Shown: positions 14,236 to 51,861, numbered from the stretch's first letter. The stretch: DNA of 64,000 bases from Thermoplasmata archaeon (GCA_020348445.1 CP070751.1:3755189-3819188), one strand, 5' to 3'. The notes: generated from the sequence alone by a model not told the origin. Numbers and translations are program-made.

Positions 14236-14236
14236 T

Positions 14237-19284: not shown

Positions 19285-19324
19285 CTTTCAAGCTATACCC
19301 ATTCCTACCTTCGGAAGGAGGGAG

Positions 19325-20278: not shown

Positions 20279-20283
20279 TATGA

Positions 20284-31128: not shown

Positions 31129-31413
31129 TCACTCATCCTCCACTCCCGACATCAATCCTCTTACACAAACTGAGAAATTACATGAATCTGATCTTGCCCT
31201 CTCACAGTAATGACATCTTAAAGTCAGAAGCACTTCTCTTACGATCCATTCCTTTGTCTCGTCATCAACATCTGGAAGGTTCTTTTTAATCTCCATAATA
31301 CTTTTACTCTGTACATCCTTCCATTTTGGTTGTGTTGATAGGTGCATTCTCTTTTTCCATGCATTCCTCATCTCTTCGATCTTCTTTTGTTCTTCTTCGT
31401 TTAATTCACTCAA
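31129..31413 (-). CDS. Conserved small Cys4 protein (uncharacterised family; 4 paralogs in window)
   Basis: C-terminal block VLLTLRCHYCERARSDSCNFSVCVRGLMSG (CxxCx7Cx4C). Preceded by LPD(V/I)D(D/E)ETK. The stop overlaps the hdrA start. Confidence 0.6.
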   Translation of the reverse strand: MSELNEEEQKKIEEMRNAWKKRMHLSTQPKWKDVQSKSIMEIKKNLPDVDDETKEWIVREVLLTLRCHYCERARSDSCNFSVCVRGLMSGVEDE

Positions 31414-34400
31414 GTTGATCCCTCCTTTAGGGCAGCAATGGCCTGAGAGAGAAGTTGAATGTCGGTGAAATGTGCAATATCTATGGCCTTCTCAGGGCAT
31501 GCTGCGCCACAAGTCCCGCATCCCTTGCATAGAACCTCGGCTACCTTTGCCTTCAATTCTTCCATATCAACTCTAATTGCACCATATGGACATACCATCT
31601 CGCAGGTTCCACACCCTGTACATTTATCCTCGTTAACTGAAGATACAGTGCCTTCCACAAAGAGTTTTTCCTTGGATAGGATGGTGGCTGCTCTTGATAC
31701 TGCTGCACTTGATTGAGCAACACATTCCTCGAAGAATTTTGGTGAATGAGCAAGACCACAAAGGAATATACCTTCTGTTGCAAATTCTACTGGGCGAAGT
31801 TTCATATGTGCTTCCAAAAAGAATTTGTGCTTGCTGAGGGGGACCTTCAATATCTGTGCCAAATCTGTATTATCCGTGTGAGGGATCGTTGCTGCACTCA
31901 GAATTAATAGGTCTGGTCGAAGCACCAGGTCCTCGTTAAGGAATTGCTCTTTGATCTTTACCTCAATTCCTTTTTTATCGCTTACCTTGGGCTTTGTTTC
32001 ATCATCGTATCTAATGAACTTTATACCCTTTCTCGCTGCTTCCTCATAAAATATCTCGCTGAATCCATAGGTTCTGATGTCCTTGAATAGAACATATATG
32101 TTTGCATCTGGTTTTAATTCCTTTATGTTCAAGGCGTTTTTCACCGCCTCGGTACAGCAAACCCTGCTGCAATAAGGTCTCTCTGGCGTTCTGGAACCTA
32201 CACATTGAATCATCACTATCGTGTTTGCATCGATTTTTTGCTCTTTAGCCATTTTTTCTTCCAGCTCGAGCTGAGTTAGAACGTTTTCGTTTTTACCATA
32301 GAGGTATTCAGAGGGCTTGTACTCCTCCCCTCCAGTAGAGACTATGACGATTCCATGTTCGATTTCCTTATCTTCACCGTTATGATCTATTATTGTTTTG
32401 AAGTTGCCAATATATCCGGATACATCTTTTACAGTGCTATTTGTGAATACATGGATTCTTTCATCAGAATCGATGTTCATGACGATTTCTTTCAATTTCT
32501 TTTGTATGTCTTTTTGCTCGCCCATTAATTCGTGATGTATTCTCTTCATGAGTCCTCCAAGCTCATTCTCTCTCTCAACGATAAAGGCTTCATAACCTTG
32601 TTTGGATAGTTCCAAGGCTGAATTCATACCGCTTATCCCACCACCTATGACCAAGGCAGATGGTTTTACTTCAATGGGAACCTTTGGCAATGGTGAATTC
32701 AATCTTGCCTTGGTTACAGCCATTCTAACTAAATCCTTTGCTTTCTCTGTAGCGGCATCAGGTTCTCGCATATGAACCCATGAGCACTGATCACGAATAT
32801 TAGCCATCTCGAAAAGATACGGATTTAATCCTGCTTCTGCCACCGTATTTTGGAACAATGGTTGATGGGTCCTTGGGGTGCAAGAAGCCACTATCACCCT
32901 ATTCAGCCCATGCTCCTCGATTTTTTCTTTTATCTTTTGTTGAGTATCCTGTGAGCAGGTGTAAAGGTTATTCTCAGCATATGCTACGTTCGGCATAGTT
33001 TTTGCATACTCAACCACATCGGGTACATCCACTACACCGCCGATGTTGATGCCACAATGACAAACAAAAACGCCTATACGAGGTTCCTCCTCACCTATCT
33101 CTCTCTCAGGCGGGTACTCCTTTACAGTTACCAATTTCCCCCGCTCAGAGGAAATAACTGACGATGCTTTTGCTGCCGCGCCACTTGCCTCTGATACACT
33201 GTCGGGAATGTCCTTTGGTGCCCCAAATGCCCCACCAACAAATATTCCTGGGCGTGAGGTCTCTAACGGGGAAAATAAAATATCTGTTGAGCAAAAATTA
33301 TATTCATTCAAATCTACATTAAGCTTCTCGCTGAGGTTCTTTGCATCTTTAGGTGCCGTCATCCCAACTGCAAGTGTTACGAGGTCGAACTCTTCTGTGA
33401 CAAGTTCCCCCTCTTCGATATAGTTTATAATCAAATTATTGGTATTTGGATTTTCAGCGATTGCGGATATCCTATTGTTCTTTACGAACCTTATACCGTG
33501 CTCTTTCTCAGCTCTGATATAATAATCATCGAACTCCTTACCAAAGGCTCGCATGTCCATGAAGAATATAGTGGCTTCCAACCCAGGGTTATGTTCCTGA
33601 GCTATCACCGCCTCTTTTATTGCGAACATACAGCATACAGAGGAGCAGTATGGATTGCCAATTGATCTATCGCGGGAACCAACGCACTGGATGAACGCCA
33701 TCTTCTTTGAGACCTTTCCGTCAGAAGGTCTTAGAACCAGTCCCCCATAAGGACCTGTTGCGCTCAACATGCGCTCTAGCTCAAGACTTGATACCACATT
33801 CAGATATTTTCCATAACCGTACTCTTTGCGTTTTTTGGTGAGGTCGAACTCATCGAAGCCTGGCGTGACGATAATAGAGCCCACCTCCAGTTGCATTTTT
33901 TCCTCGGTTTGATCATACGCAATGGCCCCTGCTCCACAAACCTCGGAGCAGACGCCGCATCCGATACATATATCCTTATCGATAGCATACACTGACGGCA
34001 CAGCTTGGGGATACCTAACAAAAATTGCTTTTCTAAGTTTGAATCCTTTATTGTACTCATCTGGCACCTCAACGGGGCATCTTTGGGTACATATTCCACA
34101 ACCCGTACATTTTGTCTCATCCACTCGTCGAGAGTGTTTTGATATAGTGACCGTAAAATGCCCTGCATCACCCACAACCTCTTCCATATCTGCGTTGGTT
34201 ATCAACTTAATATTTTGATGTCTTCCCGTCTCTACCAATTTTGGAGCCATTATACACATGGCACAATCGTTGGTAGGGAAAGTTTTATCCAATTGGGACA
34301 TAGCCCCTCCGATGGTTGGTGATTTTTCCAATAAATATACTTTAAATCCTGAATCCGCTAGATCAAGAGATGATTGCATGCCGGAAATTCCTCCTCCGAT

Positions 34401-34433
34401 GACCAAGACCGCACCAACTTTGTCGTTGCTCAT
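31410..34433 (-). CDS. hdrA: HdrA-like flavoprotein, two-module long form (1007 aa)
   Basis: Same motif architecture. Closest paralog of 27312..30323. Confidence 0.9.
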   Translation of the reverse strand: MSNDKVGAVLVIGGGISGMQSSLDLADSGFKVYLLEKSPTIGGAMSQLDKTFPTNDCAMCIMAPKLVETGRHQNIKLITNADMEEVVGDAGHFTVTISKHSRRVDETKCTGCGICTQRCPVEVPDEYNKGFKLRKAIFVRYPQAVPSVYAIDKDICIGCGVCSEVCGAGAIAYDQTEEKMQLEVGSIIVTPGFDEFDLTKKRKEYGYGKYLNVVSSLELERMLSATGPYGGLVLRPSDGKVSKKMAFIQCVGSRDRSIGNPYCSSVCCMFAIKEAVIAQEHNPGLEATIFFMDMRAFGKEFDDYYIRAEKEHGIRFVKNNRISAIAENPNTNNLIINYIEEGELVTEEFDLVTLAVGMTAPKDAKNLSEKLNVDLNEYNFCSTDILFSPLETSRPGIFVGGAFGAPKDIPDSVSEASGAAAKASSVISSERGKLVTVKEYPPEREIGEEEPRIGVFVCHCGINIGGVVDVPDVVEYAKTMPNVAYAENNLYTCSQDTQQKIKEKIEEHGLNRVIVASCTPRTHQPLFQNTVAEAGLNPYLFEMANIRDQCSWVHMREPDAATEKAKDLVRMAVTKARLNSPLPKVPIEVKPSALVIGGGISGMNSALELSKQGYEAFIVERENELGGLMKRIHHELMGEQKDIQKKLKEIVMNIDSDERIHVFTNSTVKDVSGYIGNFKTIIDHNGEDKEIEHGIVIVSTGGEEYKPSEYLYGKNENVLTQLELEEKMAKEQKIDANTIVMIQCVGSRTPERPYCSRVCCTEAVKNALNIKELKPDANIYVLFKDIRTYGFSEIFYEEAARKGIKFIRYDDETKPKVSDKKGIEVKIKEQFLNEDLVLRPDLLILSAATIPHTDNTDLAQILKVPLSKHKFFLEAHMKLRPVEFATEGIFLCGLAHSPKFFEECVAQSSAAVSRAATILSKEKLFVEGTVSSVNEDKCTGCGTCEMVCPYGAIRVDMEELKAKVAEVLCKGCGTCGAACPEKAIDIAHFTDIQLLSQAIAALKEGST

Positions 34434-34741
34434 TAATAAATCCCCCCTATTTCTCTTCCTGACATAAGTCCTCGGATACAGATTGAGAAGTTACATTGAT
34501 CTGTTCTTGCCCGCTCGCAACTATGGCATCTTAAAGTTAACAAAAGTTCTCGGGTTATCTTTTTCTTTGTTTCCTCGTCGATGTCTGGGAGACTTGTTTT
34601 ACAAAGTTGTATGATCTTATTTTGTGTTTGTCCCCAACTTGGTATGGTGGATATACGGCTTTTGTAATCCCATCTGCTTCTTATTTCATCAACAGTTTTC
34701 TTATCCTTTTTGCTCAATTCGCTTTTAGTGTTCTTGGTCAC
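34433..34741 (-). CDS. Conserved small Cys4 protein (paralog)
   Basis: ..LPDIDEETKKKITRELLLTLRCHSCERARTDQCNFSICIRGLMSG. Overlaps the mvhD stop upstream and the hdrA start downstream. Confidence 0.6.
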   Translation of the reverse strand: MTKNTKSELSKKDKKTVDEIRSRWDYKSRISTIPSWGQTQNKIIQLCKTSLPDIDEETKKKITRELLLTLRCHSCERARTDQCNFSICIRGLMSGREIGGIY

Positions 34742-35523
34742 TTTATCCCCTCCTCTACTGCTAAATATAAAGGAGTATCATTGTCAATCCTGTCAAGCAT
34801 CACCAGACCTCGGTCCCTTAACGTCACAATATGTTGTAATACTCGATTGGGGGGAAGTTCTAGGCGCTGAGCCAGTTCATCTACTGATAACGCTTCATCC
34901 CTAACTTCAAAAATAATACTACATCTATCTAATTCATAATTGATGGCGGCGTCAAGTACGGTGTCTATTTCCTCCTGAGGAACTTTCTCATTGTATACAT
35001 TTCCTTCCATAACCAAATCCAATTCTCTTGAAACAAGTAACTTCAATCTAAAGTCCTTCACAGCATTTTTTGCTGCAAATAATGCCTTAAGAATATCAAC
35101 GTTAGGTGTTGTTCCGCTAACGGGTGATGGCCCAATTTCTTTTATTTGCTTTGTGAATTCTCGGATAGTTTCTGCAAATCGTTCGCCTTCGGAAGCAGAA
35201 ATCCATTCTAGTCTGAGTCGCTCCTCTTCAAACCCTATCCTCTTCAATAATTTCTTTGTCAGTTTTACCCTCTTTTCAGCAAAATAATTACCTGTTTGAT
35301 AATGGCAATCTCCAAAATGACATCCACCAACAAGGATCCCATCTGCACCTTGGATGAACATTTCCAAGATAAGAGATGGTTCGACCCTACCACTACACAT
35401 TACCCTTACTATCCTAAGATTTGCAGGATATTGATATCTGCTCACACCTGCCAGATCAGCACCTGCATATGAGCACCAGTTGCATAAAAATCCCAGAATT
35501 TTAGGTTCGAATTTTGTTGCCAT
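34738..35523 (-). CDS. mvhD: MvhD-type protein with C-terminal wHTH-like extension (261 aa)
   Basis: MvhD core plus C-terminal SVDELAQRLELPPNRVLQHIVTLRDRGLVMLDRIDNDTPLY. Confidence 0.8.
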   Translation of the reverse strand: MATKFEPKILGFLCNWCSYAGADLAGVSRYQYPANLRIVRVMCSGRVEPSLILEMFIQGADGILVGGCHFGDCHYQTGNYFAEKRVKLTKKLLKRIGFEEERLRLEWISASEGERFAETIREFTKQIKEIGPSPVSGTTPNVDILKALFAAKNAVKDFRLKLLVSRELDLVMEGNVYNEKVPQEEIDTVLDAAINYELDRCSIIFEVRDEALSVDELAQRLELPPNRVLQHIVTLRDRGLVMLDRIDNDTPLYLAVEEGIK

Positions 35524-38500
35524 TAGATCGCCTCCCTTAAAGCGGCCATGGCTTGTGCAGTAAGTTGTGTTTCAGTGTAGTTCCGAATTGTAATTGCGTT
35601 CTCTGGACATGAACCTGCACAAATACCACAACCCTTACATAGCACTTCCATAACCTTTGCCACCAATTCCTCTTCATCTTTGCGGACAGCACCGTATGGA
35701 CAAACGAACTCGCAGGTTCTGCACCCTATACACAGTTCCTCATCCACGGAGGATACCATTCCTTCGACGAATAGTTTCTCCTTCGAGAGAATTGTGGCGG
35801 CTCTTGAAACTGCTGCACTGGATTGTGAAATGCACTCATTAAAGAATTTTGGTGAATGGGCCAAACCACAAACGAAGATACCATCGGTTGCGAACTCCAC
35901 AGGACGCAGTTTCATATGTGCTTCCAAGAAGAATCCGTCTTTTGTCAATGGAACCTTTAATATCTTTGCTAAATCATAATTATCAGGATTAGGTACTGTT
36001 GCAGCGCTCAATACCAGGTAATCTGGCTTTATAACTACATCCTCATTTAGGAAATGATCATAGACCTTAACTTCCAAGCCATTATCATCCGTAACAACGG
36101 GTTTTGTATTGTCAAAGAATCTAATGAACTGGATACCCTGTCTTGCAGCTTCCTCGTAATATATTTCCCGAAATCCATATGTTCTCATATCCTTGAACAG
36201 GACGAACACGCTGATTTGGGGATTCTTCTCTTTGGCCTTCAACGCATTTTTTACAGCCTCGACACAGCATACCCTACTGCAATACGTTCTGATTTCATCT
36301 CTGCACCCAACACATTGGATCATAACAACAGTCTTGGCATTGGGATCCAATTCATTGTTATAAAGTATATTGTCGAATTCGAGCTGGGTGAGCACTTTAT
36401 CATTTTTTCCGTATAGGAACTCTTTTGGTTGGTATTCGGCACCACCTGAAGCAACGATTATTGCTCCATGTTCAATTTCCTTTTCCTCTCCATTTTGATC
36501 TAAGGTTGTGACGAAGTTACCAACGTAACCGTTTACATCCTTCACCGTTGTATTTTTATAGATTTTGATCTTATCATTTGAATTAACGTTTTCTATGGTC
36601 TTATTAAGCCATGTGGGTATATCCTCTCCTTTCAAACCATAATGCAATCTATTTACCAAACCTCCTAACTCGCTCTCCTTCTCAACAATATGGGCCTCGA
36701 AACCTTGACTTGCCAGCTCCAAAGCCGCATTCATACCTGAGATCCCACCTCCTATAACCAATGCAGATGGTTTTACATCAATGGGCACCTTGGGTAATGC
36801 AGTGCTCAATCTGGCCTTTGCTAAAGCCATTCTTACCAGATCCTTAGCCTTCTCTGTTGCTCTTTCTGGCTCTTCCATATGCACCCATGAGCATTGGTCA
36901 CGAATATTGGCCATCTCGAAAAGATAGGGATTAAGCCCACTTTCTGCCACCGTGTTTTGGAACAGGGGTCCATGGGTTCTAGGAGTGCAGCTTGCCACCA
37001 TTACGCGGTTGAGGTTGTGCTCTTTGATCTTCTCTTTTATATGCTCCTGGGTATCTTGGGAACACGTGTACAGGTTCTCCTCTGCAAATATAACATTGGG
37101 CAAGGTCTTTGCATATTCTACGACCTTAGGAACATTCACAACTCCGCCAATATTTATTCCGCAATGACAGATGAAAGCTCCAATGCGCGGTTCCTCCTCA
37201 CCAACCTCTTTTTCAGGAGGATACTCCTTTACTGTTGTGAGGGTATTTCTTTGGGATGCGATTATACTGGATACTTTGGTTGCGGCACCGCTTGCCTGAG
37301 CCACGCTATCTGGAATATCCTTTGGATCCTGAAATACCCCGCAGACATATATCCCTGGTTTGTTGGTGCTTATGGGGGAGAATATTGTTGTATTGCAGAA
37401 ATCGAAGTCGTTAAGTTCTATTCCCAATTTCTCTCCTAATTCATGGGCTCCCTTTGGTTTTTCCATACCCACAGAAAGAACCACCAAATCAAATTCTTCC
37501 TCCTTTAATTCCCCTCCAAAGATGTATACTATCTTCAGATTCTTTGTTTTGGGCATCTCCTCAACAGAGGAAATGCGATTGTTTGAAACAAACCTAACCT
37601 TATGCTCTTTAGCAGCCCGAATGTAATAATCGTCGAACTCCTTGCCAAAGGCACGCATGTCCATGAAGAATATAGTTGAGCTTAATTCGGGGGTATGCTC
37701 CTGGGCAATCACAGCTTCCTTTATGGCGAACATGCAGCATACTGAGGAGCAGTATGGATTGCCGATGCTTCTGTCCCTTGATCCAACACATTGTATAAAA
37801 GCGATTTTTTGGGCAACTTTTCCATCTGAAGGTCGAAGAACCACACCACCATATGGTCCTGTTGCAGAAAGCATTCTCTCCAGTTCAAGGCTTGATACGA
37901 CGTTGGGAAATCTACCGTAGCCGTACTCCCTTCGCATCGTCCTCAAATCGAACTCTTCAAAACCAGGAGAGACAATAATCGAGCCTACATTCAGATCGAT
38001 TTTTTCCTGTGTTTGTGAGTATTTTATGGCTCCTGCCCTGCATTGGGTCTCACAGATTCCACAACCTATGCAATGGTCTTGGTCTATGCAATGGATAGGC
38101 GGCACAGCCTGTGGATATTTTATATAAACCGCTTTTCTGATCTTAAAGCCCCTGTTATACTCGTCTTTGACCTCCACGGGGCAGCGCTGTGTACAGAGAC
38201 CACAACCTGTACATTTGCTTTCGTCCACATATCTTGGTCTCTTATTGATGGTGACCTTGAAGTTTCCTGCTTCACCTTCCACATTCTCCACATTGGCATT
38301 GGTGATGAGCTTGATATTCTGATGTCTTCCTGTTTCCACAAGTTTGGGAGCCATTATGCACATTGCGCAGTCATTTGTTGGGAAGGTTTTATCCAACTGG
38401 GCCATAGCACCCCCTATACTTGGAGAGTAATCAACGATATAAACATAGAATCCCGAATCAGCCAGATCCAGTGCGGATTGCATACCGGCTATTCCTCCTC

Positions 38501-38534
38501 CAATGACCAGTGCGGCTCCTATAGTTTCATCCAT
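35523..38534 (-). CDS. hdrA: HdrA-like flavoprotein, two-module long form (~1003 aa from MDETIG; the ORF track extends to 38588)
   Basis: Same motif architecture. The likely ATG overlaps the stop of the small Cys4 gene (TGATG). Confidence 0.9.
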   Translation of the reverse strand: MDETIGAALVIGGGIAGMQSALDLADSGFYVYIVDYSPSIGGAMAQLDKTFPTNDCAMCIMAPKLVETGRHQNIKLITNANVENVEGEAGNFKVTINKRPRYVDESKCTGCGLCTQRCPVEVKDEYNRGFKIRKAVYIKYPQAVPPIHCIDQDHCIGCGICETQCRAGAIKYSQTQEKIDLNVGSIIVSPGFEEFDLRTMRREYGYGRFPNVVSSLELERMLSATGPYGGVVLRPSDGKVAQKIAFIQCVGSRDRSIGNPYCSSVCCMFAIKEAVIAQEHTPELSSTIFFMDMRAFGKEFDDYYIRAAKEHKVRFVSNNRISSVEEMPKTKNLKIVYIFGGELKEEEFDLVVLSVGMEKPKGAHELGEKLGIELNDFDFCNTTIFSPISTNKPGIYVCGVFQDPKDIPDSVAQASGAATKVSSIIASQRNTLTTVKEYPPEKEVGEEEPRIGAFICHCGINIGGVVNVPKVVEYAKTLPNVIFAEENLYTCSQDTQEHIKEKIKEHNLNRVMVASCTPRTHGPLFQNTVAESGLNPYLFEMANIRDQCSWVHMEEPERATEKAKDLVRMALAKARLSTALPKVPIDVKPSALVIGGGISGMNAALELASQGFEAHIVEKESELGGLVNRLHYGLKGEDIPTWLNKTIENVNSNDKIKIYKNTTVKDVNGYVGNFVTTLDQNGEEKEIEHGAIIVASGGAEYQPKEFLYGKNDKVLTQLEFDNILYNNELDPNAKTVVMIQCVGCRDEIRTYCSRVCCVEAVKNALKAKEKNPQISVFVLFKDMRTYGFREIYYEEAARQGIQFIRFFDNTKPVVTDDNGLEVKVYDHFLNEDVVIKPDYLVLSAATVPNPDNYDLAKILKVPLTKDGFFLEAHMKLRPVEFATDGIFVCGLAHSPKFFNECISQSSAAVSRAATILSKEKLFVEGMVSSVDEELCIGCRTCEFVCPYGAVRKDEEELVAKVMEVLCKGCGICAGSCPENAITIRNYTETQLTAQAMAALREAI

Positions 38535-38839
38535 CAGATCACCTCCTGACCAGAAAGAAGACCGCGAATACAAACTGAGAAGTTGCATTCATCGCTACGG
38601 GCTCTTTCGCAACTGTGACATCTAAGTGTTAGAAGCATATTTCTTGTGATTTTCTTCTTTGTCTCTTCATCGATATCAGGTAACGAGCTCAGGCATTCCT
38701 GGATGATCTTTGTTTGAACCTGTCCCCATCTGGGAAGTGTGGATATTCTATCCTGGTTTCGCCATGAATCCTTTATCATCCTGACCTTAGCCTCTGAACC
38801 TTTTTTAGATGTTTTTGAAGGAGCCTTTTCTTTCTTCAT
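38534..38839 (-). CDS. Conserved small Cys4 protein (paralog)
   Basis: ..LPDIDEETKKKITRNMLLTLRCHSCERARSDECNFSVCIRGLLSG. Confidence 0.6.
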   Translation of the reverse strand: MKKEKAPSKTSKKGSEAKVRMIKDSWRNQDRISTLPRWGQVQTKIIQECLSSLPDIDEETKKKITRNMLLTLRCHSCERARSDECNFSVCIRGLLSGQEVI

Positions 38840-42850: not shown

Positions 42851-43049
42851 GCCCCCTTAAGGATCGAACATGATTACATATTACCTTCCCTTTATACACT
42901 GTACATAGGGGAGGAGGGAATTGCTCTTTTATGATATATATTTTATGACGATATATAACACTTTTTAGATGGTATTCGCCGAAATACCACTGGTATTTTT
43001 CCATATCTCGTCATGGATATCTGCGGTATATTTTTCAATAGTTATGGTA

Positions 43050-44177
43050 TCATTTTTCATTATCATCCATATTTTTATTTTTCAATGCCCTTTCTCTCTT
43101 CATATTTGCAAATTCTGAAATTTTTTCTAATTGTTCCTGGGCAAGATTATCGGATCCTCCTTGGCTTTTATCTAACTCTTCTATGAACCTGTGGCGAATT
43201 GCATCTTGATAAATCGCCTCTCCCAAATCTGTTCTGATCAATACAGTGGTCCATCCCTCAGGTGAACCCAAACCGCCAAAAGAAAGGTCTGCAAAGTCGT
43301 TTGCAAAATCTGAGCAGGCAAGACAGGCAGAGCGGGCAAATTCCTCCATTTTTTCCAAGGGAATGTGTTTTGTATCACCATTTTTTTGCTTGATTATGAA
43401 ATCCTCCCTGATATTCATATTCTCGATGTCATCAAAATTCACGCCAAGGATTTTTTCCATATCTCTTTTTTTAGATACATCAAAGGAAAAATTCTCGGTG
43501 CAAAAAAGGCCGAAAACGAACTTCACTACATGGGAGGGTACAACATGCAAACTTTGCATCTTTCTCAGGGTATGTACTTGACACGGTGTGCTCACAACAA
43601 CTATTTTCACCAAATCCATATTGGTAATTTCTTTTATTGCAAACATGGTTGGAGAATATGTGGAGAACCTGCTAAGCTCCTCGACACCACAAATTCCCGT
43701 GAATCTCGAGCCGGCAGCAGAGAGAACCTCTTCGTAGGAGGTGGCTATCATGGGCTCTCTGGCAAATTGCGCAGTCTTCTTGGATACCACAGCACCATCG
43801 ATCATTTTTTTTTCCAATAAGAAATGTAGAATTGAAGTGACAACTCCACCATCTGTTGCATTTTTTCGAATCTCTGGGTTTGTACTTCTGGCAGATACAA
43901 TATTTTTAAACCTACCAACGGGTGAAACCCAATGATAAGTGTCTTTTAGATCCTGGTCAAGAATACTAATCTGTGGGCAGATAATATAGCAGATACCACA
44001 TTCAAGGCAGCTTTCTTCATCCAAATATTTTGGCCTTCCATCCTCGCCAAAACCGATGGCCATAAGCTCTCCTGCAGAGCAAAACGAGACACACCCTCCA
44101 CAGGATCCGCATAATCCAGGTTCATGAACTTCTTTGACCAGGTCCTTGAATGTCTTTGTCTCATCAATTTCGTCCAA
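43050..44177 (-). CDS. Coenzyme F420-dependent oxidoreductase beta subunit family protein (FrhB/FdhB/FpoF-like)
   Basis: N-terminal 2x[4Fe-4S] motifs (CGSCGGCVSFCS, CLECGICYIICP) followed by the FrhB-type core (NATDGGVVTSILHFLLEKKMIDGAVV). Confidence 0.75.
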   Translation of the reverse strand: MDEIDETKTFKDLVKEVHEPGLCGSCGGCVSFCSAGELMAIGFGEDGRPKYLDEESCLECGICYIICPQISILDQDLKDTYHWVSPVGRFKNIVSARSTNPEIRKNATDGGVVTSILHFLLEKKMIDGAVVSKKTAQFAREPMIATSYEEVLSAAGSRFTGICGVEELSRFSTYSPTMFAIKEITNMDLVKIVVVSTPCQVHTLRKMQSLHVVPSHVVKFVFGLFCTENFSFDVSKKRDMEKILGVNFDDIENMNIREDFIIKQKNGDTKHIPLEKMEEFARSACLACSDFANDFADLSFGGLGSPEGWTTVLIRTDLGEAIYQDAIRHRFIEELDKSQGGSDNLAQEQLEKISEFANMKRERALKNKNMDDNEK

Positions 44178-44309
44178 AACCCCAATGCCCCCAATCCCAG
44201 GTATAAAATTGGAGATTAAAAAACTTATTATTATCCGAAAGCTATGAATTTTGAAAGCAAGTAATAGTTAAAATAGTTCGTAACAAATAAGAAAATATTT
44301 TAAAGGAAC

Positions 44310-44888
44310 TTATTTCGAAGATCCGAGGGGATTTGGACCAAGAGCCTTTATTTGCTCAACAAATTCGTTCATGGTCTGTGCAAACTTCTCTGCTTCAGAA
44401 GCAGAAAGCCATTCACCCCTCAATCTCCCAGAGCCCAAACCCAGCATGTCAAGTATTTGCTGTGTGGTTTCAATCCTCTCTTTTGCACGAAGATTGCCAG
44501 ATATGTAATGGCAATCGTCCAACTTGCATCCAGTCACCATTACACCGTCGGCCCCGTACTCAAAGGCCTTCATAATGAATTCAGGTTCGATTCTTCCTGA
44601 GCACATGAACCTTATGATATTGACACAGGAAGGATATTTATATCGATTGATACCTGCTAAATCAGCGGATGTGTAAGAGCACCAATTACAGGAGAATGCA
44701 ATTATCTTTGGTTCGAACTCAGTCAGTCTCCCACCTCCTAATCGCCGAAGGAGCATTAATATCATATGTAAAATTCGAGCAGGTGAGGGCGAGTTTCTTT
44801 TTCCCCCATGTTCCGATGAAAAACTGATGTTTTTCAAGGCCTCGGGAAATCTTTGATTTCCCAAGGTTTCTTTGCGAGCCCGAGCCAT
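44310..44888 (-). CDS. mvhD: MvhD-type [2Fe-2S] protein, short form (start uncertain)
   Basis: LTEFEPKIIAFSCNWCSYTSADLAG..GCKLDDCHY. No ATG at the conserved N-terminal position (CTG preceded by GGAGGTGGGAGA). Upstream in-frame ATGs exist at ~44768/44759. Confidence 0.75.
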   Translation of the reverse strand: MARARKETLGNQRFPEALKNISFSSEHGGKRNSPSPARILHMILMLLRRLGGGRLTEFEPKIIAFSCNWCSYTSADLAGINRYKYPSCVNIIRFMCSGRIEPEFIMKAFEYGADGVMVTGCKLDDCHYISGNLRAKERIETTQQILDMLGLGSGRLRGEWLSASEAEKFAQTMNEFVEQIKALGPNPLGSSK

Positions 44889-45027
44889 CGTGGTGGACAG
44901 AAATTGAATCTAAACACTTACTGTCCTCCACTGTGTAGTGGAAAACATATTTAGTATTAGGGGTATTGTTTTCCACGACAGCAGAGAATTTTACCTCAAA
45001 GAAAAAGGCGGGTTCGAAATCAGTCAA
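44719..45027 (-). CDS. Hypothetical 102-aa protein between hdrA and mvhD (TTG start; doubtful)
   Basis: RBS AGGGGGT lies 9 nt upstream of TTG. It begins MTDFEP like MvhD N-termini but does not continue as MvhD. Its stop overlaps the mvhD RBS/start region. Confidence 0.25.
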   Translation of the reverse strand: MTDFEPAFFFEVKFSAVVENNTPNTKYVFHYTVEDSKCLDSISVHHDGSGSQRNLGKSKISRGLEKHQFFIGTWGKKKLALTCSNFTYDINAPSAIRRWETD

Positions 45028-45054
45028 TTATGGTACCCCCTTTTTTTGAGCAGG

Positions 45055-46845
45055 TCACCCCTCCACCTCCATCTTATATTCTAAAATCGCTTTGATCATT
45101 GGAAGTATCTGCTCTCTTTTGAAGTGGCGAATTGAAATGGCCTTGTTACAGCATCCTGCCGAGCATTTACCATCCCCTTGACAAAGAATGGGGTCCACAT
45201 GGGATACTTTTCTCCCATCCTTGACTACAATCACTGCGGCATTGAATTCGCAATTTTCTGCACATTTACCGCAGCCAACACACATTTCTTCATCAACAAC
45301 TGCAACCCCGCCTCCAATGTATGTTGAGCCCTTTTGAAGCAGTTTTATGGCATTGGATGCAGAAAGCCTGGCATCCTCGATTGAATATCTGATTCCCTTT
45401 GGTCCCTGGGCGCAGCCCGCAATGAAAATTCCCCTACGCTCTTCAGGAGTGAGCATGGGATTCATGTATTTTATAAAACCGTCTATGTCCAATGGCAGGT
45501 GTAAAGTTTCAGCCAATTTTGTGGTTGCATCTCTTGCCTCCTGACCCACAGAGAGCACGACAAGATCACTTTCGATCTCAAGGGGTGTTCCGGCATCCAC
45601 ATCCTCACATCTTAGAATTACCTTGCCCTCCTTCTCGAAAATCTCTCCAACCCTTCCCCTAACGAAATTTACTCCCGCAGCTTTAGCTTCCTCATAGAAT
45701 TCCTCAAAGCCCCTGTAAGGGCCCCTTAAGTCCATGTAGTGAATGTAAACTTCAGTACCAGGATAGCGTTTTTTGATTTCCATGGCCTGGCCAATTGCGT
45801 ATGTGCAGCATACCAGTGAGCAGTGGGGATTTCCCTTGTTGGCATCTCTTGAGCCCACACATTGAATGAAGTTAACGGTCTTGGGTATCTTGCCGTCCGA
45901 GGGTCGGTGAAGTTTTCCCCCTTTATCTCTTTGGGCCATGATCATCCTTTCGAGTTCGATTGTGGAAATAACATTCTTGTGGTCATAGCTGTATTCCTTC
46001 AATTTTGAGGGATCGAAGATCTGGGAACCAGTAGCAATTATTATCGTGCCAACATCGATTTCCTTTTCCCCATCAGGAGTTTTTATTTTCACATGTCGGT
46101 TTCCCAAACCACCTGTGATTTCGGTAACTTCCGAGGATAGGAGGACCTCTATTTTATCATGCTGATTAACATCCTCGATCTTCGGTGTTAGGACGCAGCT
46201 TTTACAGGATTGAATGCAGCATATCCCGCAGTTGTGCGTGGGAAAAGTCATGGAGAGCTCGTATGCCCTTCCACCGAGTTTTTCAGTTTTTTCCACGAGG
46301 TACACCTGATACCCTGCGTTTGCGATATCCAAGGCGGCCTGCATTCCCGCCACACCACCACCGATCACCAATGTTGATGGAATTATGTCCACCTTTGTAT
46401 CCTCAAGTGCTTCAAGAGTATTTGCTCTGGCAACTGAACCTGCGATTATGCGCTTTGCCTTTTGTGTAGCTTCGTTTTTATCCTCGTGTATCCATGCACA
46501 TTGTTCTCTTATATTTGCCTGCTCATATTGATATTTGTTAAGGCCTCCTTCAACAACTCCTCCCCCGATCGTGGATTCGTAAATCTTTGGAGTACAGGCA
46601 GCAACAACCACCGCATCAAAATTTTCTTTTTCACATTCCTCAGAAAGAAACTTCTGGCCGGAAACCGAGCATAGGGAATCATGCTTCTTTACAACTTCTA
46701 CTCCCGGTAATGCCTCAGCAAATTTAATGATTTCATCAAAATCGATTTTATCTGTGATGTTATCATAACAACTGCATATAAAGAGTCCAACTTTTTTCTC
46801 TTTTTTTTGGTCCAAGACCATACACCCCTTCAGCAATCGCAGCAT
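45055..46845 (-). CDS. hdrA: HdrA, classical single-module form (596 aa)
   Basis: N-terminal Cys domain (LFICSCYDN.., AACTPKIYE.., IREQCAWIH). GGGVAGMQAALDIA FAD motif. C-terminal CVGCGKCAENCE and CQGDGKCSAGCC clusters. Confidence 0.85.
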   Translation of the reverse strand: MLRLLKGCMVLDQKKEKKVGLFICSCYDNITDKIDFDEIIKFAEALPGVEVVKKHDSLCSVSGQKFLSEECEKENFDAVVVAACTPKIYESTIGGGVVEGGLNKYQYEQANIREQCAWIHEDKNEATQKAKRIIAGSVARANTLEALEDTKVDIIPSTLVIGGGVAGMQAALDIANAGYQVYLVEKTEKLGGRAYELSMTFPTHNCGICCIQSCKSCVLTPKIEDVNQHDKIEVLLSSEVTEITGGLGNRHVKIKTPDGEKEIDVGTIIIATGSQIFDPSKLKEYSYDHKNVISTIELERMIMAQRDKGGKLHRPSDGKIPKTVNFIQCVGSRDANKGNPHCSLVCCTYAIGQAMEIKKRYPGTEVYIHYMDLRGPYRGFEEFYEEAKAAGVNFVRGRVGEIFEKEGKVILRCEDVDAGTPLEIESDLVVLSVGQEARDATTKLAETLHLPLDIDGFIKYMNPMLTPEERRGIFIAGCAQGPKGIRYSIEDARLSASNAIKLLQKGSTYIGGGVAVVDEEMCVGCGKCAENCEFNAAVIVVKDGRKVSHVDPILCQGDGKCSAGCCNKAISIRHFKREQILPMIKAILEYKMEVEG

Positions 46846-46874
46846 CTTATGGTCATATTACCAATATCACTTCT

Positions 46875-48020
46875 TTACTTTATTCTTTCTATTATAGCCG
46901 ATATCAGATCACCAACAGGAATATCCACTTTCTCCTTCTCAACAGGTATCTCCTTCCATGTGGCACAAGTGAAGTGAATCACACATTTAGGACAAGTTGT
47001 AATGAGCTTATCGGCCCCTGTATTTTTCGCCTCCATTAACCGATCTATCTGCATTATCTTAGAGAGGGATTCACAGGTTGCAAAGGCATTTACTCCGCAG
47101 CATGCACTGTTCTCCTTTATGTTCTCCATTTCAATCAATTCAAATCCCGCAGCTTCAATGAGTTCCCTGGGGCTGTCGTAGATCTCCAAATGCCTTCCAA
47201 GTCTGCACGGGTCATGGTATGTAACTTTCTCATTTCCATCGCTTTTAAATTCCAGTTTCCCGTCATCCACCAAATCCATTAGATAATCTGTGATGTAAAC
47301 CAGCTCAAAATCCAGATCACCTGCAATATCCTGATAATCGAAATCAAATGTTCTCATCCCTTCTGGGCAGGAAAAAACCACGGTCTTTGCACCAGCTTCC
47401 TTTATTGCCTTGATATTGAGATTCATTAATTTGTCAAAATTATCTTCATCCCCTGTCCAATTGAGATCGTGACCGCAGCATACCTCGTTTTTGCTCATTG
47501 CTGGTGTGATACCGGCTTTGTTCAACACCCTTACATTGTTTTTAGCAATATCAAGGATACCGGCCTTCCTTTCCTCGAAAATCTTATCTAGATGAGCCTG
47601 GCAGCCAGAGAAATAGTACACATCACCCTTTTCTGCAACCTTTAAATCATCGGTAACCCAGCTTAACCTGTTCTGTGGTAACTGGTGAGATTGGATTCTG
47701 GCAATTGTCTGCATCAATCCTCCCTGGGAGCACGTGGGCTCAAATCCGTCTAAAACAGATTCACTTCTAAGTCCTCTGATGAACTCGGTGTAATCCACTT
47801 TGTAAGGACACATCTGACTGCACATGGCACATGTAGTACAGCGCCATATGTCCATGTTCTGGGCAAGGCCCCCCTCCACACCCTCCAATGCCTTAACCAC
47901 TATCAGTCTTGGAGCAAAGTTCTGGTCCAGTTTGGCAACGGGACATACAGTCGTGCATTTACCGCATTCAACACAATCATATGCTCCTGTGTCATCGATG
48001 AGATCATCTATTGCGGACAT
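46875..48020 (-). CDS. HdrD-like / fused HdrC-HdrB-type iron-sulfur protein with CCG domains (GlcF-like)
   Basis: N-terminal 2x[4Fe-4S] (CVECGKCTTVCP, CTTCAMCSQMCP) followed by two cysteine-rich CCG-type segments (EVCCGHDLNW, SACCGVNAF). Confidence 0.75.
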   Translation of the reverse strand: MSAIDDLIDDTGAYDCVECGKCTTVCPVAKLDQNFAPRLIVVKALEGVEGGLAQNMDIWRCTTCAMCSQMCPYKVDYTEFIRGLRSESVLDGFEPTCSQGGLMQTIARIQSHQLPQNRLSWVTDDLKVAEKGDVYYFSGCQAHLDKIFEERKAGILDIAKNNVRVLNKAGITPAMSKNEVCCGHDLNWTGDEDNFDKLMNLNIKAIKEAGAKTVVFSCPEGMRTFDFDYQDIAGDLDFELVYITDYLMDLVDDGKLEFKSDGNEKVTYHDPCRLGRHLEIYDSPRELIEAAGFELIEMENIKENSACCGVNAFATCESLSKIMQIDRLMEAKNTGADKLITTCPKCVIHFTCATWKEIPVEKEKVDIPVGDLISAIIERIK

Positions 48021-51000
48021 TCGATTTCCTCCTTCTGAGGTTTAATGGATTGTTCTATCGGATTCAATGGATTGGGCCCGAGCTCTTTGACCTTGTTTAC
48101 GAACTCTGTCATGACCTCTGCAAATCTTTTTCCTTCGGATGCAGAGATCCATTCTAATCGAACACGCCTTTCATCCATACCCAACAATCCTATAAGTTCT
48201 TTTACGTTTTTGACCCTAATTTCCGCCTTCTCATTTCCTGATATATAATGGCAGTCGCCGATATGACAGCCTGCAACCAGTATACCATCCACTCCTTTAT
48301 GAAGTGCTTCCATAATAAATGATGGGGAGATTCTTCCCGAGCACATCACCCTTATCACCCTGATATTTGGCGGGTACTGAAATCTGGAAACACCTGCCAA
48401 ATCAGCCCCGGCATAGGCACACCAATTGCAGCAGAATGCTAGTATGAAGGGTTCAAATTCCTCCCTCAATTTATGCCCTTCAAGTGCAGAGTCTATCATG
48501 GTATGAATCTGATCATTTTTGAAATGCTTTGTAATGATGGCGTTATTGCAGCAACTTGCAGCACATGCTCCGCAGCCCTTGCATAAAGCCTCATTGATTT
48601 TCGAATGCTTTTTCCCTTCATCATCTGTAATGAGCTCGGGGGCGCCGAACTCACAGATATCGACGCATTCTCCACATCCTCGACATTTTGACTCGTCAAC
48701 AACAGAGATTACAGCATTTGCTTCAAAGAATTTTTTAGAAAGCAAAGTTGCAGCCCTTGATACCGTCCCCTTAGCCTGTGAAATACATTCCTCCAAGAAT
48801 TTTGGTGAATGCGCAAGCCCGCACAAAAAGACCCCCTCGGTTGCGAAATCCAAAGGACGTAATTTCATATGAGCCTCCAGGAAAAATCCATCCTTGGAGA
48901 GGGGAACCTTAAGCATCTTGGCGATTTTTTCATTGTCGACACTGGGTATTGTGGCTGTGCTTAGAACCAAAAGATCTGGATTGATATCGATATTTTCACC
49001 TAGAAAATGATCGAAAATTGATACAGAAAGCTCACCACCTGCAAGCTGAACATCGGGCTTTGAATCGTCATAGTACCTGATGAATATTATACCTGATCTT
49101 GCAGCCTCTTCATAGAAGATCTCGCGAAAGCCGTATGTTCTCATGTCCTTGTATAGGATGTATATATTTGCTTCGGGATTCAATTCCTTCAACTTCAAAG
49201 CATTTTTCACGGCCTCTGAGCAGCAGACCCTGCTGCAATATGTCCGTGTCTCATCCCTGCTTCCCACACACTGAATCATAACTACTGTCTTTGCATCCAC
49301 TTGGCCTTTTCCTAATCTCTCTTCAAAATCCAGTTGGGTGATGATCCTCTCATCCTGGCCGTATAGGTACTCTTTAGGCTCGTAACTGATGCCGCCGGTA
49401 GCAACGATAACGGCTCCATGTTCCAATGTCTTCTCCTCGCCGTTTTCAGAAATAGTGGTTTTAAAATCTCCCACACAACCCTCGATATTCTTGATTTCAG
49501 AATTTACATACACATTTATCTTATCATTGGAATTGATCTTGTCTATGGTTTCCTTTAAAAATTCCTGAAGATTTTCTCCGGTGAGCATATAATGCAGCCG
49601 CTTGAGATTTCCTCCAAGTTCCTTCTCTTTTTCAACGATATGAGCAGCAAATCCATGCTCAGCCAATTCCAAGACAGCCATCATACCCGATATTCCACCG
49701 CCTATGACAAGGGCCGATTGATTTATGGGAATTTCCACTTTATACAATGGTTCAAGCAATCTCGTTTTTGAAATGGCCATTCTCACAAGGTCCTTAGCCT
49801 TCCTTGTTGCAGCCTCTGGCTCGTGCATGTGAACCCATGAGCACTGATCGCGGATATTAGCCATTTCAAAGAAGTATGGATTCAACCCCGCCTCTCTTAC
49901 AGTATTCTGAAAAAGCGGTTCATGGGTTCGGGGTGTACAGCTGGCCACGACAACGCGGTTGAGATTATGCTCCTCTATTTTTGATTTGATTTTTTGCTGC
50001 GTGTCCTGTGAACATGTGTAGGGGTTACTCTCTGCATAAACAACATTAGGTAGGTTTTTAACGTACTCCACAACCTCTGGAACCTTAACTACACCACCTA
50101 TGTTGATTCCGCAGTGGCAAATGAATACTCCCAAACGGGGCTCCTCCTGGGCTACCTCTTTTTCAGGTGGATACTCCTTTACTTCAACAAGTTTGTCCCT
50201 CTCGGACGCAATCAAGGACGAAGCACATGCAGCAGCACCGCTTGCTTGGGCCACAGTATCTGGAATATCCTTTGGAGCCGAAAATGCCCCTGAGACGAAA
50301 ACCCCTTTCCTGTTTGTCTCAAGAGGTGAAGTAACACTTGTTTCGCAAAAGTTGTAATCATTTAACTCAACACCCAATTTCTCGGCGAGCTCCAAGGCAG
50401 TATCTGGTGAGTCCATGCCAACAGAAAGAACAACCAGATCGAACTCTTCTTCCTTTAACTCCCCCTCGTCAACATAATTCAATATTAAATTGTTGGTGTT
50501 TTTATCCTCTTTTACTCCCGAGACCCTGTTGTTCTTCACAAACCCGATTCCATGCTCCTCTTCTGCTCTAATGTAATAATCATCAAATTCCTTGCCAAAT
50601 GCCCGCATGTCCATAAAGAATATGGTTGATTTTAACCCAGGTGCATGCTCCTGTGCTATTACAGCCTCCTTGATTGCGAACATGCAACATACAGATGAGC
50701 AATATGGATTTCCAGACGTCCTATCTCTGGAACCAACACATTGAATAAATGCAACTTTTTTTGGAATCTCGCCGTCAGAGGGTCGCAGAACCAATCCATT
50801 GAAGGGTCCTGTGGCACTGAGCATGCGCTCCATTTCCAAACTTGAGATCACATTTGGGAATTTTCCATAACCATATTCCTTGCGTTTTGATAGAATGTCA
50901 AATTCCTTAAATCCAGGTGACATGATGATGGAGCCAACTTGTATATTGATCTCCTTTTTTTCCTGGGAATATTTTATGGCCTCTGCCTCACACTGGGTCT

Positions 51001-51433
51001 CGCAGAGCCCGCAGCCAATGCATATCTCCTGGTCAATACAATGAACAGGTGGAACAGCTTGAGGATACTTTACATGGATGGCTTTTCTTCTCTTTAGGCC
51101 CTTGTTGTACTCGTCCTTTACTTCAATGGGGCATCTTTGTGTACAAATACCGCATCCCGTACAACGACTTTCATCCACATATCTCGGCCTCTTGGTGAGG
51201 GTGACCTTGAAATTTCCTGCTCCTCCTTCTACATTCTCCAAATCTGCATTTGTGATGAGCTGGATATTGTGATGGCGTCCAGTCTCCACAAGTTTGGGAG
51301 CCATGATGCACATTGCACAATCATTTGTAGGGAAGGTCTTATCAAGCTGGGACATTGCCCCACCGATGCTGGGGCTGTTATCGAGGACATAGACTTTGAA
51401 TCCTGAATCTGCCAGATCCAGTGCAGACTGCAT
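48008..51433 (-). CDS. hdrA: HdrA (two-module long form) fused C-terminally to an MvhD domain (1141 aa as called); N-terminus lacks a canonical start
   Basis: Full HdrA motif set, then a C-terminal FEPFILAFCCNWCAYAGADLAG..GCHIGDCHY MvhD domain. The called ATG (MQSALDLA) falls after the GGGISG FAD motif. The in-frame upstream stretch KKVGAILIIGGGISG contains no ATG/GTG/TTG before the stop at 51572. Confidence 0.8.
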   Translation of the reverse strand: MQSALDLADSGFKVYVLDNSPSIGGAMSQLDKTFPTNDCAMCIMAPKLVETGRHHNIQLITNADLENVEGGAGNFKVTLTKRPRYVDESRCTGCGICTQRCPIEVKDEYNKGLKRRKAIHVKYPQAVPPVHCIDQEICIGCGLCETQCEAEAIKYSQEKKEINIQVGSIIMSPGFKEFDILSKRKEYGYGKFPNVISSLEMERMLSATGPFNGLVLRPSDGEIPKKVAFIQCVGSRDRTSGNPYCSSVCCMFAIKEAVIAQEHAPGLKSTIFFMDMRAFGKEFDDYYIRAEEEHGIGFVKNNRVSGVKEDKNTNNLILNYVDEGELKEEEFDLVVLSVGMDSPDTALELAEKLGVELNDYNFCETSVTSPLETNRKGVFVSGAFSAPKDIPDTVAQASGAAACASSLIASERDKLVEVKEYPPEKEVAQEEPRLGVFICHCGINIGGVVKVPEVVEYVKNLPNVVYAESNPYTCSQDTQQKIKSKIEEHNLNRVVVASCTPRTHEPLFQNTVREAGLNPYFFEMANIRDQCSWVHMHEPEAATRKAKDLVRMAISKTRLLEPLYKVEIPINQSALVIGGGISGMMAVLELAEHGFAAHIVEKEKELGGNLKRLHYMLTGENLQEFLKETIDKINSNDKINVYVNSEIKNIEGCVGDFKTTISENGEEKTLEHGAVIVATGGISYEPKEYLYGQDERIITQLDFEERLGKGQVDAKTVVMIQCVGSRDETRTYCSRVCCSEAVKNALKLKELNPEANIYILYKDMRTYGFREIFYEEAARSGIIFIRYYDDSKPDVQLAGGELSVSIFDHFLGENIDINPDLLVLSTATIPSVDNEKIAKMLKVPLSKDGFFLEAHMKLRPLDFATEGVFLCGLAHSPKFLEECISQAKGTVSRAATLLSKKFFEANAVISVVDESKCRGCGECVDICEFGAPELITDDEGKKHSKINEALCKGCGACAASCCNNAIITKHFKNDQIHTMIDSALEGHKLREEFEPFILAFCCNWCAYAGADLAGVSRFQYPPNIRVIRVMCSGRISPSFIMEALHKGVDGILVAGCHIGDCHYISGNEKAEIRVKNVKELIGLLGMDERRVRLEWISASEGKRFAEVMTEFVNKVKELGPNPLNPIEQSIKPQKEEIECPQ

Positions 51434-51537
51434 GCCTGAGATTCCGCCACCTATTATGAGAATCGCGCCTACCTTTTTTGATTCAGCTTCCTTAATGACT
51501 GAAGCAGCTTCTACCTCGACCTGTCCATCCTTTGCCT

Positions 51538-51861
51538 CTATCCCACCACCCCCTTCCCTGAAAGCAATCCTCTAATGCACACCGAGAAATGACAGGCATC
51601 GCTTCTTGCCCTCTCGCAGCTGTGGCATCTTAACGTGAGAAGTAATTCTCTTGTGATTTTCTTTCTTGTCTCTTCATCTATATCGGGGAGGTTTTCCTTG
51701 CAATCCTGAATGATCTTATTTTGAACCTGAGCCCAGGCGGGTAAGGTGGAGACCTTGTATTTTTTTCTCCAAGAGTTGCGAATATTTTTGATCTTGTCCA
51801 ACTCTTCTTCTTTTATTTCCTTGTCACCATTATTAATTTCCATTTTTGTTCCCCTATTCAA
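51538..51861 (-). CDS. Conserved small Cys4 protein (paralog)
   Basis: ..LPDIDEETRKKITRELLLTLRCHSCERARSDACHFSVCIRGLLSG. Confidence 0.6.
   Translation of the reverse strand: MNRGTKMEINNGDKEIKEEELDKIKNIRNSWRKKYKVSTLPAWAQVQNKIIQDCKENLPDIDEETRKKITRELLLTLRCHSCERARSDACHFSVCIRGLLSGKGVVG

Follow-up and report, generated by a model that had tools for sequence, protein, structure and literature searches.

The DNA analyzed here is a 64,000-nucleotide stretch of the genome of a Thermoplasmata archaeon (GCA_020348445.1, CP070751.1:3755189-3819188), referred to below as the window. Four small genes, named S1 to S4, lie in it among genes for HdrA proteins and for adaptors in which MvhD is followed by a winged helix-turn-helix domain (MvhD-wHTH), and each encodes a protein with four conserved cysteines (Cys4 protein). 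Their HdrA neighbors are about 1000 amino acids (aa) long and carry two FAD/TrxR-like modules and several ferredoxin domains each (double HdrA). The original prediction had singled out four open reading frames (ORFs) with a common C-terminal block, and we found all of them on the minus strand, with the block present and a pairwise identity of 50-57% to the first of them. The gene order is mvhD-wHTH, small gene, double hdrA in type a and hdrA, small gene, mvhD-wHTH, double hdrA in type b.

31129..31413, minus strand: S1, Cys4 small protein, 94 aa, TTG start; type b (upstream hdrA, then S1, then mvhD-wHTH)
34433..34741, minus strand: S2, Cys4 small protein, 102 aa, GTG start; type a (mvhD-wHTH, then S2, then double hdrA)
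38534..38839, minus strand: S3, Cys4 small protein, 101 aa, ATG start; type a
51538..51843, minus strand: S4, Cys4 small protein, 101 aa from ATG 51843 (the mechanical ORF reaches TTG 51861); type a

The invariant C-terminal block of S1-S4 reads LLTLRCHxCERARxDxCxFSxCxRGLxSG, and its cysteines are spaced C-x2-C-x7-C-x4-C, as had been predicted. The block itself was confirmed, but conservation also extends upstream of it, to a W...STxPxW..Q stretch. Across stand-alone, fused and divergent members of the family, the residues T, P, W, L, D, L, C, C, E, C, F, C and L are invariant; they include the four Cys, which fall within a 17-residue span, and a Glu directly after the second Cys. Next to the cysteines stand Arg residues. 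All four Cys are retained in divergent members, one of which (representative P0124) has a middle spacing shorter by one residue. The His that had been counted into the site is constant among the four paralogs, but divergent family members have N, Q, Y, D or K at this position, and it is therefore not a conserved ligand. The N-termini, described earlier as basic, are so in S2-S4 (isoelectric point, pI, 9.2-10.5) but not in S1 (pI 6.5); over the whole protein, S2-S4 are basic (pI 8.9-9.5) and S1 is acidic (pI 5.8). A 78-aa representative (P0127) stops just before the Cys block ('...LLLRRVVTGKP') and is probably a frameshifted or truncated gene call rather than a Cys-less variant.

S1-S4 are real genes under purifying selection. 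The complete metagenome-assembled genome (MAG) CP070739.1 contains one ortholog for each paralog, with 81-93% amino acid identity (the S1 ortholog, at 9329-9613 of locus L002, is 93% identical), and the ratios of nonsynonymous to synonymous substitution rates (dN/dS) were 0.024 for S1, 0.124 for S2, 0.179 for S3 and 0.058 for S4. A GGAGG Shine-Dalgarno sequence is located 6-9 nt before the start codon of S1, S2 and S3, and AGGGG precedes ATG 51843 of S4. This ATG, not TTG 51861, is most likely the true start of S4, because the ortholog in locus L001 (8001-8306) begins at the equivalent ATG; S4 starting there would not overlap mvhD. That the four are spurious ORFs in intergenic spacers is effectively refuted: their shortness, the non-ATG mechanical starts of three of them (TTG, GTG and TTG) and the lack of a known domain might suggest it, but it is contradicted by dN/dS values of 0.02-0.18, strong Shine-Dalgarno sites, the invariant motifs of a large family and in-frame fusions, the last two described below.

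The genes are closely coupled to their neighbors. S2 overlaps the upstream mvhD stop by 4 nt (GTGA) and the downstream hdrA start by 1 nt (TAATG), and S3 does likewise (ATGA, 4 nt, with mvhD; TGATG, 1 nt, with hdrA). S1 has a 4-nt overlap with the stop of the hdrA before it and is followed, after a 23-nt gap, by mvhD-wHTH, so that its order is opposite to that of S2 and S3. The proposed arrangement of an upstream mvhD and a downstream hdrA with overlapping codons thus describes S2 and S3 exactly, is reversed for S1 and is imprecise on both sides of S4. Stop and start codons overlap by 4 nt and 1 nt in orthologous loci too.

A profile of the four paralogs matched at least 210 clusters at 90% identity (E ≤ 1e-3), and an exhaustive HMMER scan of 1.84 billion 50%-identity representatives gave 7 matches. 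The named sources are all MAGs of Thermoplasmata or Methanomassiliicoccales, indicating that the family is compact and lineage-restricted. We found no description of the small protein in the literature, and neither single Cys4 proteins nor profiles matched a Pfam, NCBIfam or PDB sequence family above threshold. These results support an undescribed protein family. With regard to the doubt, raised with the original prediction, that the ORFs might be confined to one genome or belong to a well-characterized family, the family is conserved outside the window genome. In the databases, S2 is identical to P0001, a "hypothetical protein" of NCBI (JSW00_14715). Dozens of members (for example P0010, P0014 and P0029) carry the automatic JGI/IMG name 'ribosomal protein L44E', and NCBI lists them as hypothetical; the L44E label reaches none of the curated thresholds and probably represents a mis-annotation that is being propagated.

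The genomic context was surveyed in the window, 21 species-representative genome loci and 19 metagenome loci, which together gave 42 unique instances of the domain. The results showed that 41 of them adjoin or are fused to MvhD-wHTH, and the remaining one is cut by a contig end. Type a accounts for 18 instances and type b for 17, and in six (type c) the Cys4 domain is fused to the C-terminus of MvhD-wHTH; a fusion to HdrA or any other context was not found among the 42. About 14 clusters from at least six MAGs consist of fused MvhD-wHTH-Cys4 proteins, which are 322-380 aa long, reach down to 51% identity and are not assembly artefacts. In a rough neighbor-joining tree without support values, the arrangement follows the domain phylogeny, types a and c forming one clade each and type b several deep branches. 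The survey thus bore out a tight and exclusive linkage to HdrA/MvhD; the ANME, Syntrophoarchaeum and Archaeoglobus hdrA loci to which the original prediction had pointed are not represented among the named sources of family members.

Not every unit of this kind has a small gene. The fifth mvhD-wHTH/hdrA unit of the window (26520..27311 and 23506..26523) lacks one, and in other metagenomic lineages an MvhD-wHTH of about 258 aa leads directly to double HdrA, MvhD, HdrC, HdrB, MvhG and MvhA. The last unit of the window matches this layout, with [NiFe]-hydrogenase subunit genes close by on the plus strand. The adaptor/double-HdrA unit is thus the more widespread element, with the Cys4 module as an addition to it, and the constant neighbor of the module is the MvhD-wHTH adaptor, not HdrA as such. 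Of the predicted co-translation and co-assembly, the coupling is kept in orthologous loci and the recurrent natural fusions argue for co-assembly, but with the adaptor as the constant partner. Among the alignment columns of HdrA and MvhD, no clean Cys or other signature tracked whether a unit has the small module. The best candidate was a Cys at HdrA reference position 904 (numbered on the protein of 31410..34433), just before the C-terminal ferredoxin domain; it occurs in 74% of the double HdrAs with a Cys4 partner and in 8% of those without, a contrast that is incomplete and confounded by phylogeny.

All five adaptors of the window belong to the MvhD/FlpD family (PF02662), scoring 175-190 bits against a gathering cut-off of 22.3, and carry a C-terminal ArsR-type wHTH; the small Cys4 protein itself gave no FlpD signal. 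An AlphaFold2 (AF2) model of a fused member had a predicted template modeling score of 0.78, and MvhD, a helical linker and the wHTH (residues 217-258) were mostly predicted with a local confidence (pLDDT) above 90. Foldseek searches with this model returned the MvhD chains 5ODC_D, 8RVU_F and 7BKB_F (50-55% identity, E ~1e-13, template modeling score 0.86-0.92 on the target) and, for the wHTH, ArsR/MarR-type folds, and nothing beyond these. The N-terminal domain of the adaptors is thus a bona fide MvhD like that of MvhAGD-HdrABC (5ODC chain D), Fdh-Hdr (7BKB chain F) and Elp-Hdr (8RVU chain F). As in Mvh-Hdr systems, the window also has plain MvhD and MvhG/A-like hydrogenase genes. The adaptors differ from canonical MvhD, which is about 130-140 aa long and has neither a wHTH nor an associated Cys4 protein. 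The wHTH domains in the window are acidic (pI 4.4-5.8), which is unusual for DNA binders and fits a docking role; they are charge-complementary to the basic S2-S4, and S1 is itself acidic.

A close architectural likeness is the class II benzoyl-CoA reductase (BCRII) of Geobacter metallireducens. A cryo-EM preprint describes BamE as a fused dimer of HdrA and BamF as an MvhD adaptor that exceeds the usual length by more than 100 residues and whose wHTH docks the input subunit BamI (bioRxiv 10.64898/2026.04.10.717634). The wHTH there serves protein docking instead of DNA binding, and an MvhD-type [2Fe-2S] adaptor with a wHTH is likewise paired with a fused HdrA dimer of about 1000 aa. The window contains five such pairs, each an MvhD with a wHTH beside a fused double HdrA. 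There are differences as well: no Cys4 module is mentioned for BamF in the portion available, and, unlike BCRII as described there, the window lacks BamGHI and BamBC genes, its host is an archaeon and its units stand in a tandem array. The adaptor/double-HdrA architecture is thus already known from BCRII, and it is the Cys4 module, added to it in one archaeal lineage, that is undescribed.

For the small protein, AF2 predicted helices at residues 11-25, 36-50 and 56-69. In the fused member, two helices of the Cys4 module reached a pLDDT of about 77-80 next to the confident MvhD and wHTH, and a PDB phmmer search with the wHTH-plus-Cys4 segment found nothing significant. As originally proposed, the Cys spacing fits neither a ferredoxin nor a rubredoxin. 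The Fer4 models did not match any of 51 members even at E ≤ 1, and C-x2-C-x7-C-x4-C differs from the ferredoxin motif CxxCxxCxxxC(P); no rubredoxin or zinc-ribbon hidden Markov model matched above threshold, the PriA zinc ribbon (E = 0.054) and PyrI_C (E = 0.0079) both falling below the cut-off. Rubredoxins and zinc ribbons have two CxxC knuckles, and in all members the first pair is CxxC and the second C-x4-C. DsrC/TusE Pfam models also gave no match at E ≤ 1 in the 51 members, whose Cys pattern differs from the two Cys of DsrC, which lie about 10 residues apart on a flexible C-terminal arm.

One candidate family is the ribosomal protein L44e/eL42, which is of similar length (~92-106 aa). NCBIfam L44e (NF004425, cut-off 87 bits) gave 18.4 bits for S2 and 16.5 bits for S3 (E = 0.0025 and 0.0099) and nothing for S1 and S4. 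Pfam Ribosomal_L44 (PF00935, judged by its gathering score) did not match the four window proteins at E ≤ 0.1, and matched 17 of the 51 members below threshold (best E = 5e-4). The sub-threshold likeness runs over a 'GQ' motif and, 35 residues on, the knuckle 'L-x-L-R-C-x-x-C-x-[KR]-A-[HR]'. With hhalign, the Cys4 and L44e profiles gave a colinear 51-column alignment (probability 21%, P = 0.001) with a score of 23.9, against 11.1 ± 2.9 for column-shuffled profiles, a level reached by one of 200 shuffles under each of two null models; the choice of L44e was made post hoc, and the result is therefore no more than suggestive. C11, C14, C71 and C74 are present in each of six PDB-verified archaeal L44e sequences, whereas the small proteins lack the N-terminal CxxC, have all four Cys at the C-terminus, two of them extra and downstream of the knuckle, have a predicted helical middle region and stand in hdr operons. 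The aligned part of eL42 is an extended rRNA-bound loop. Membership in L44e/eL42 was rejected on the scores far below the cut-offs, the missing N-terminal CxxC and the non-ribosomal context; a remote common origin of the C-terminal knuckle is possible.

There are two further likenesses. The uS14 type Z protein (7OOC chain M) and mL97 (7AIH chain BD) share a local R-C-x-x-C-x-R-[AV]-[RH]-[SA]...F-x-V-C pattern at E = 0.2-1, which is not significant and could at best point to a zinc-knuckle-like first Cys pair. The 12-residue spacing from the second to the last Cys of the Cys4 proteins equals that from the second to the third Cys of uS14, the position of the fourth uS14 ligand is a Gly, and another Cys, five residues before the last, makes up the four. 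TFE and PF0610-like proteins have a wHTH followed by a Cys4 zinc ribbon. The domain order is the same in the fused members, a likeness of architecture; here, the wHTH is acidic and attached to an Fe-S (iron-sulfur) adaptor domain. PF0610-like_N (PF21476) matched the wHTH domains with E = 2.6e-5 to 0.065, 13.9-24.8 bits against a gathering score of 33. Membership in this family was also not accepted, as the N-domain is sub-threshold and no ribbon model matches the small proteins.

Real and lineage-restricted genes, a nearly invariable adjacency or fusion to MvhD-wHTH and the absence of a matching known family are the observations to be explained. We consider it somewhat better than an even chance that Cys4 is a lineage-specific metal-binding module of the MvhD-wHTH adaptor in double-HdrA bifurcating complexes. 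The four genes would then encode a module of about 70 residues with four cysteines and a variable N-terminal tail, belonging stoichiometrically to the adaptor subunit of these flavin-based electron-bifurcating complexes. In the Thermoplasmata host it is a separate polypeptide, made in step with its partners by translational coupling, and in sister lineages it forms the C-terminal domain of the adaptor itself. If the adaptor wHTH is a protein-docking element, by analogy with BamF/BamE of BCRII, the Cys4 module may stabilize or extend its docking surface, the four invariant Cys most likely holding one metal centre, with Zn(Cys)4 favored or otherwise a small Fe-S cluster. Each paralogous HdrA unit would in this way have a connector of its own, leading to HdrA or to an electron-donor module. 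The paralogs are only 50-57% identical, yet the orthologs are 81-93% identical, which fits a unit-specific pairing. Physical binding, metal binding and the docking role are inferred.

Several observations weigh against this interpretation. AF2 leaves the Cys-rich tail unfolded (pLDDT <50), both alone and in the fusion. Zinc knuckles in their classic form usually have Gly after the second Cys, where these proteins have an invariant Glu, and a second pair spaced C-x4-C is likewise atypical of them. Whole units were co-duplicated, and adjacency by itself therefore cannot separate MvhD from HdrA as the partner, so that the evidence pointing to MvhD-wHTH comes from the fusions and the two alternative gene orders. 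Moreover, the BamF analogy is a comparison by description with the architecture reported in one preprint.

A first alternative explanation is that the four Cys bind an Fe-S cluster ([2Fe-2S] or [4Fe-4S]) and serve as an extra one-electron relay to or from the MvhD [2Fe-2S] or the HdrA ferredoxin domains, not as a structural clasp. All neighboring proteins are Fe-S or flavin electron-transfer proteins, the 17-residue span of four invariant Cys resembles compact four-Cys cluster loops such as the EndoIII type, the failure of AF2 on this region could reflect cofactor dependence, and the Glu just mentioned also speaks for it. We nevertheless regard a relay as unlikely: the 51 members gave no Fer4 or other Fe-S Pfam signal even at E = 1, the weak likenesses are only to zinc-binding ribosomal knuckles (L44e, uS14-Z, mL97), and a module that is dispensable in related lineages and in one window unit fits an accessory role better than an obligatory link. 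On the same likenesses, the missing Fe-S signature and the dispensability in sister units, Zn(Cys)4 is weakly preferred. For the originally suggested zinc-ribbon-like or novel metal site, the likenesses found, all below threshold, are to those ribosomal knuckles. The original prediction of an undescribed accessory subunit or assembly factor was right in that no family or literature match was found, and the fusions favor a permanent module over its second option. A factor for co-translational folding or cofactor loading of MvhD-wHTH and HdrA that is absent from the mature complex would suit the tight translational coupling, the small size and the HypD, HypE-like, HycI and SlyD-like FKBP proteins of the wider neighborhood. 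It is very improbable given the recurrent and diverse covalent fusions to the adaptor C-terminus, which make a permanent component more likely, the one-to-one pairing in which four small genes serve four of five adaptors and each has its own ortholog, and the unit that manages without a Cys4 gene.

Slightly below the assembly factor ranks a redox-active protein whose CxxC and Cx4C pairs would cycle between thiol and disulfide, as a DsrC-like protein substrate or as a thiol relay. Hdr-type enzymes carry out disulfide chemistry, Arg residues flank the cysteines, and the Cys at HdrA position 904 is enriched with the small module, although this correlation is incomplete and confounded by phylogeny; Cys-Cys disulfides in the path from MvhD to FAD are also discussed in the BCRII preprint (bioRxiv 10.64898/2026.04.10.717634). 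Against it, there is no DsrC/TusE or thioredoxin-like signal, a fusion to the adaptor would be odd for a diffusible substrate, and most units with the small gene lack an adjacent HdrBC/CCG catalytic subunit. Last in our ranking of these four comes a nucleic-acid-binding zinc knuckle, as a diverged L44e/eL42 paralog or, together with the wHTH, as a redox-sensing autoregulator of the hdr operon. The Ribosomal_L44 matches, the NCBIfam L44e matches of two paralogs, the colinear hhalign alignment, the basic charge of S2-S4 and the common DNA-binding architecture of a wHTH with a zinc knuckle, to which the PF0610-like_N matches belong, are all compatible with this. However, the matches lie far below the curated cut-offs (18 bits vs 87), the hhalign probability is low and the L44e N-terminal CxxC is absent, the aligned region is predicted to be helical with pLDDT up to 91, hdr operons are the sole context with four copies per genome, and the wHTH domains and S1 are acidic.

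The genes around S1-S4 form a tightly packed same-strand array of 33 kb on the minus strand (window 23059-56002), with six double-HdrA, further single or split HdrA, five MvhD-wHTH adaptors, plain MvhDs, one HdrBC-like CCG protein and one FrhB-like protein. This concentration of bifurcation modules is unusually dense, and no substrate is evident. Its other members, from the head of the array, are as follows.

52649..56002, minus strand: double HdrA with an extra ferredoxin insert, 1117 aa, head of the array
51858..52652, minus strand: MvhD-wHTH adaptor paired with S4, 264 aa; Pfam FlpD (E=9.5e-53), HTH_5 and PF0610-like_N
48008..51541, minus strand: double HdrA fused to a C-terminal MvhD, 3' of S4; no canonical start before the FAD-binding motif
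46875..48020, minus strand: HdrBC-like CCG protein
45055..46845, minus strand: HdrA
44310..44888, minus strand: MvhD
43050..44177, minus strand: FrhB-like protein
41543..42850 and 39639..41543, minus strand: split HdrA, 435 aa and 634 aa
38836..39642, minus strand: MvhD-wHTH adaptor paired with S3, 268 aa; Pfam FlpD (E=5.7e-52) and C-terminal HTH_5/HTH_20
35523..38534, minus strand: double HdrA 3' of S3, two Pyr_redox/FAD modules and Fer4 domains
34738..35523, minus strand: MvhD-wHTH adaptor paired with S2, 261 aa; Pfam FlpD (E=9.8e-56) and HTH_20/HTH_5; wHTH pI 4.4
31410..34433, minus strand: double HdrA 3' of S2 and 5' of S1, 1007 aa
30320..31105, minus strand: MvhD-wHTH adaptor directly 3' of S1, 261 aa; Pfam FlpD (E=2.1e-56) and HTH_20
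27312..30323, minus strand: double HdrA of the S1 unit, 1003 aa
26520..27311, minus strand: MvhD-wHTH adaptor without a Cys4 partner, 263 aa; same arrangement in loci L023 and L024
23506..26523, minus strand: double HdrA of the unit without a small gene, 1005 aa, followed by a plain MvhD
23059..23505, minus strand: plain MvhD, after the double HdrA of 23506..26523

The start of the double HdrA 3' of S3 is ATG 38534 and not 38588, as inferred from the alignment of its N-terminus. The hdrA/mvhD fusion gene 3' of S4 has no ATG, GTG or TTG before its FAD-binding GxGxxG motif (minus strand, window 51433-51574), and its first ATG (51433) encodes the Met within 'GGGISGM'. At the S4 stop, an ATAG lies behind a G-rich Shine-Dalgarno-like stretch both in the window and in L001 (8249-8450), and the equivalent region of L005 (6211-6430) has a classic ATGA stop/start overlap. 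This pattern suggests non-canonical ATA initiation, termination-reinitiation or an N-terminally defective gene. The two parts of the split HdrA, about 1069 aa together, match HdrA2 positions 139-562 and then 1-228 plus further stretches. The pair (39639-42850), which is kept in L006, L008, L009 and L023, looks like a double HdrA that was domain-permuted or broken up into two genes.

Next to the array lies a cluster of hydrogenase and maturation genes (window 12318-22929).

12318..13430: HypD
17163..18227: AIR-synthase-family HypE-like protein
18592..19107: HycI-type maturation protease
19202..21729, plus strand: [NiFe]-hydrogenase small and large subunits
21777..22202 and 22465..22929: two FKBP-type isomerases, possibly SlyD-like

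Before this cluster lie genes for a 1035-aa fibronectin-III-domain protein (8175-11282, plus strand), a NosD/beta-helix protein (1799-3193, minus strand) and a GH114-like protein (503-1711, plus strand), which may be surface or secreted proteins and apparently have no relation to the Cys4 genes.

One major class of flavin-based electron bifurcation is built around HdrA/MvhD modules, and the choice of partner by the adaptor is an active structural question, as the Mvh-Hdr, Fdh-Hdr, Elp-Hdr and BCRII structures illustrate. Non-methanogenic Thermoplasmata have many hdr genes without an assigned role, and the Cys4 proteins make up a family, unannotated and in part misnamed "L44E", that occurs as a specific addition to BamF-like adaptors. 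A bolder proposal, which we hold to be doubtful, is that they are a new class of HdrA-enzyme subunit whose zinc- or Fe-S-binding knuckle is perhaps derived from eL42/L44e and which, with the acidic wHTH, acts as a paralog-specific connector choosing the donor module or a neighboring double HdrA. If this connector proposal were true, the 33-kb hdrA array would assemble into several differently wired or daisy-chained complexes. Given the lineage restriction, the immediate impact of the Cys4 family is moderate and consists of better annotation and a concrete target for electron-bifurcation specialists. The units with and without the module in one operon provide a clean natural experiment, and the fused variants are suitable for structure work.

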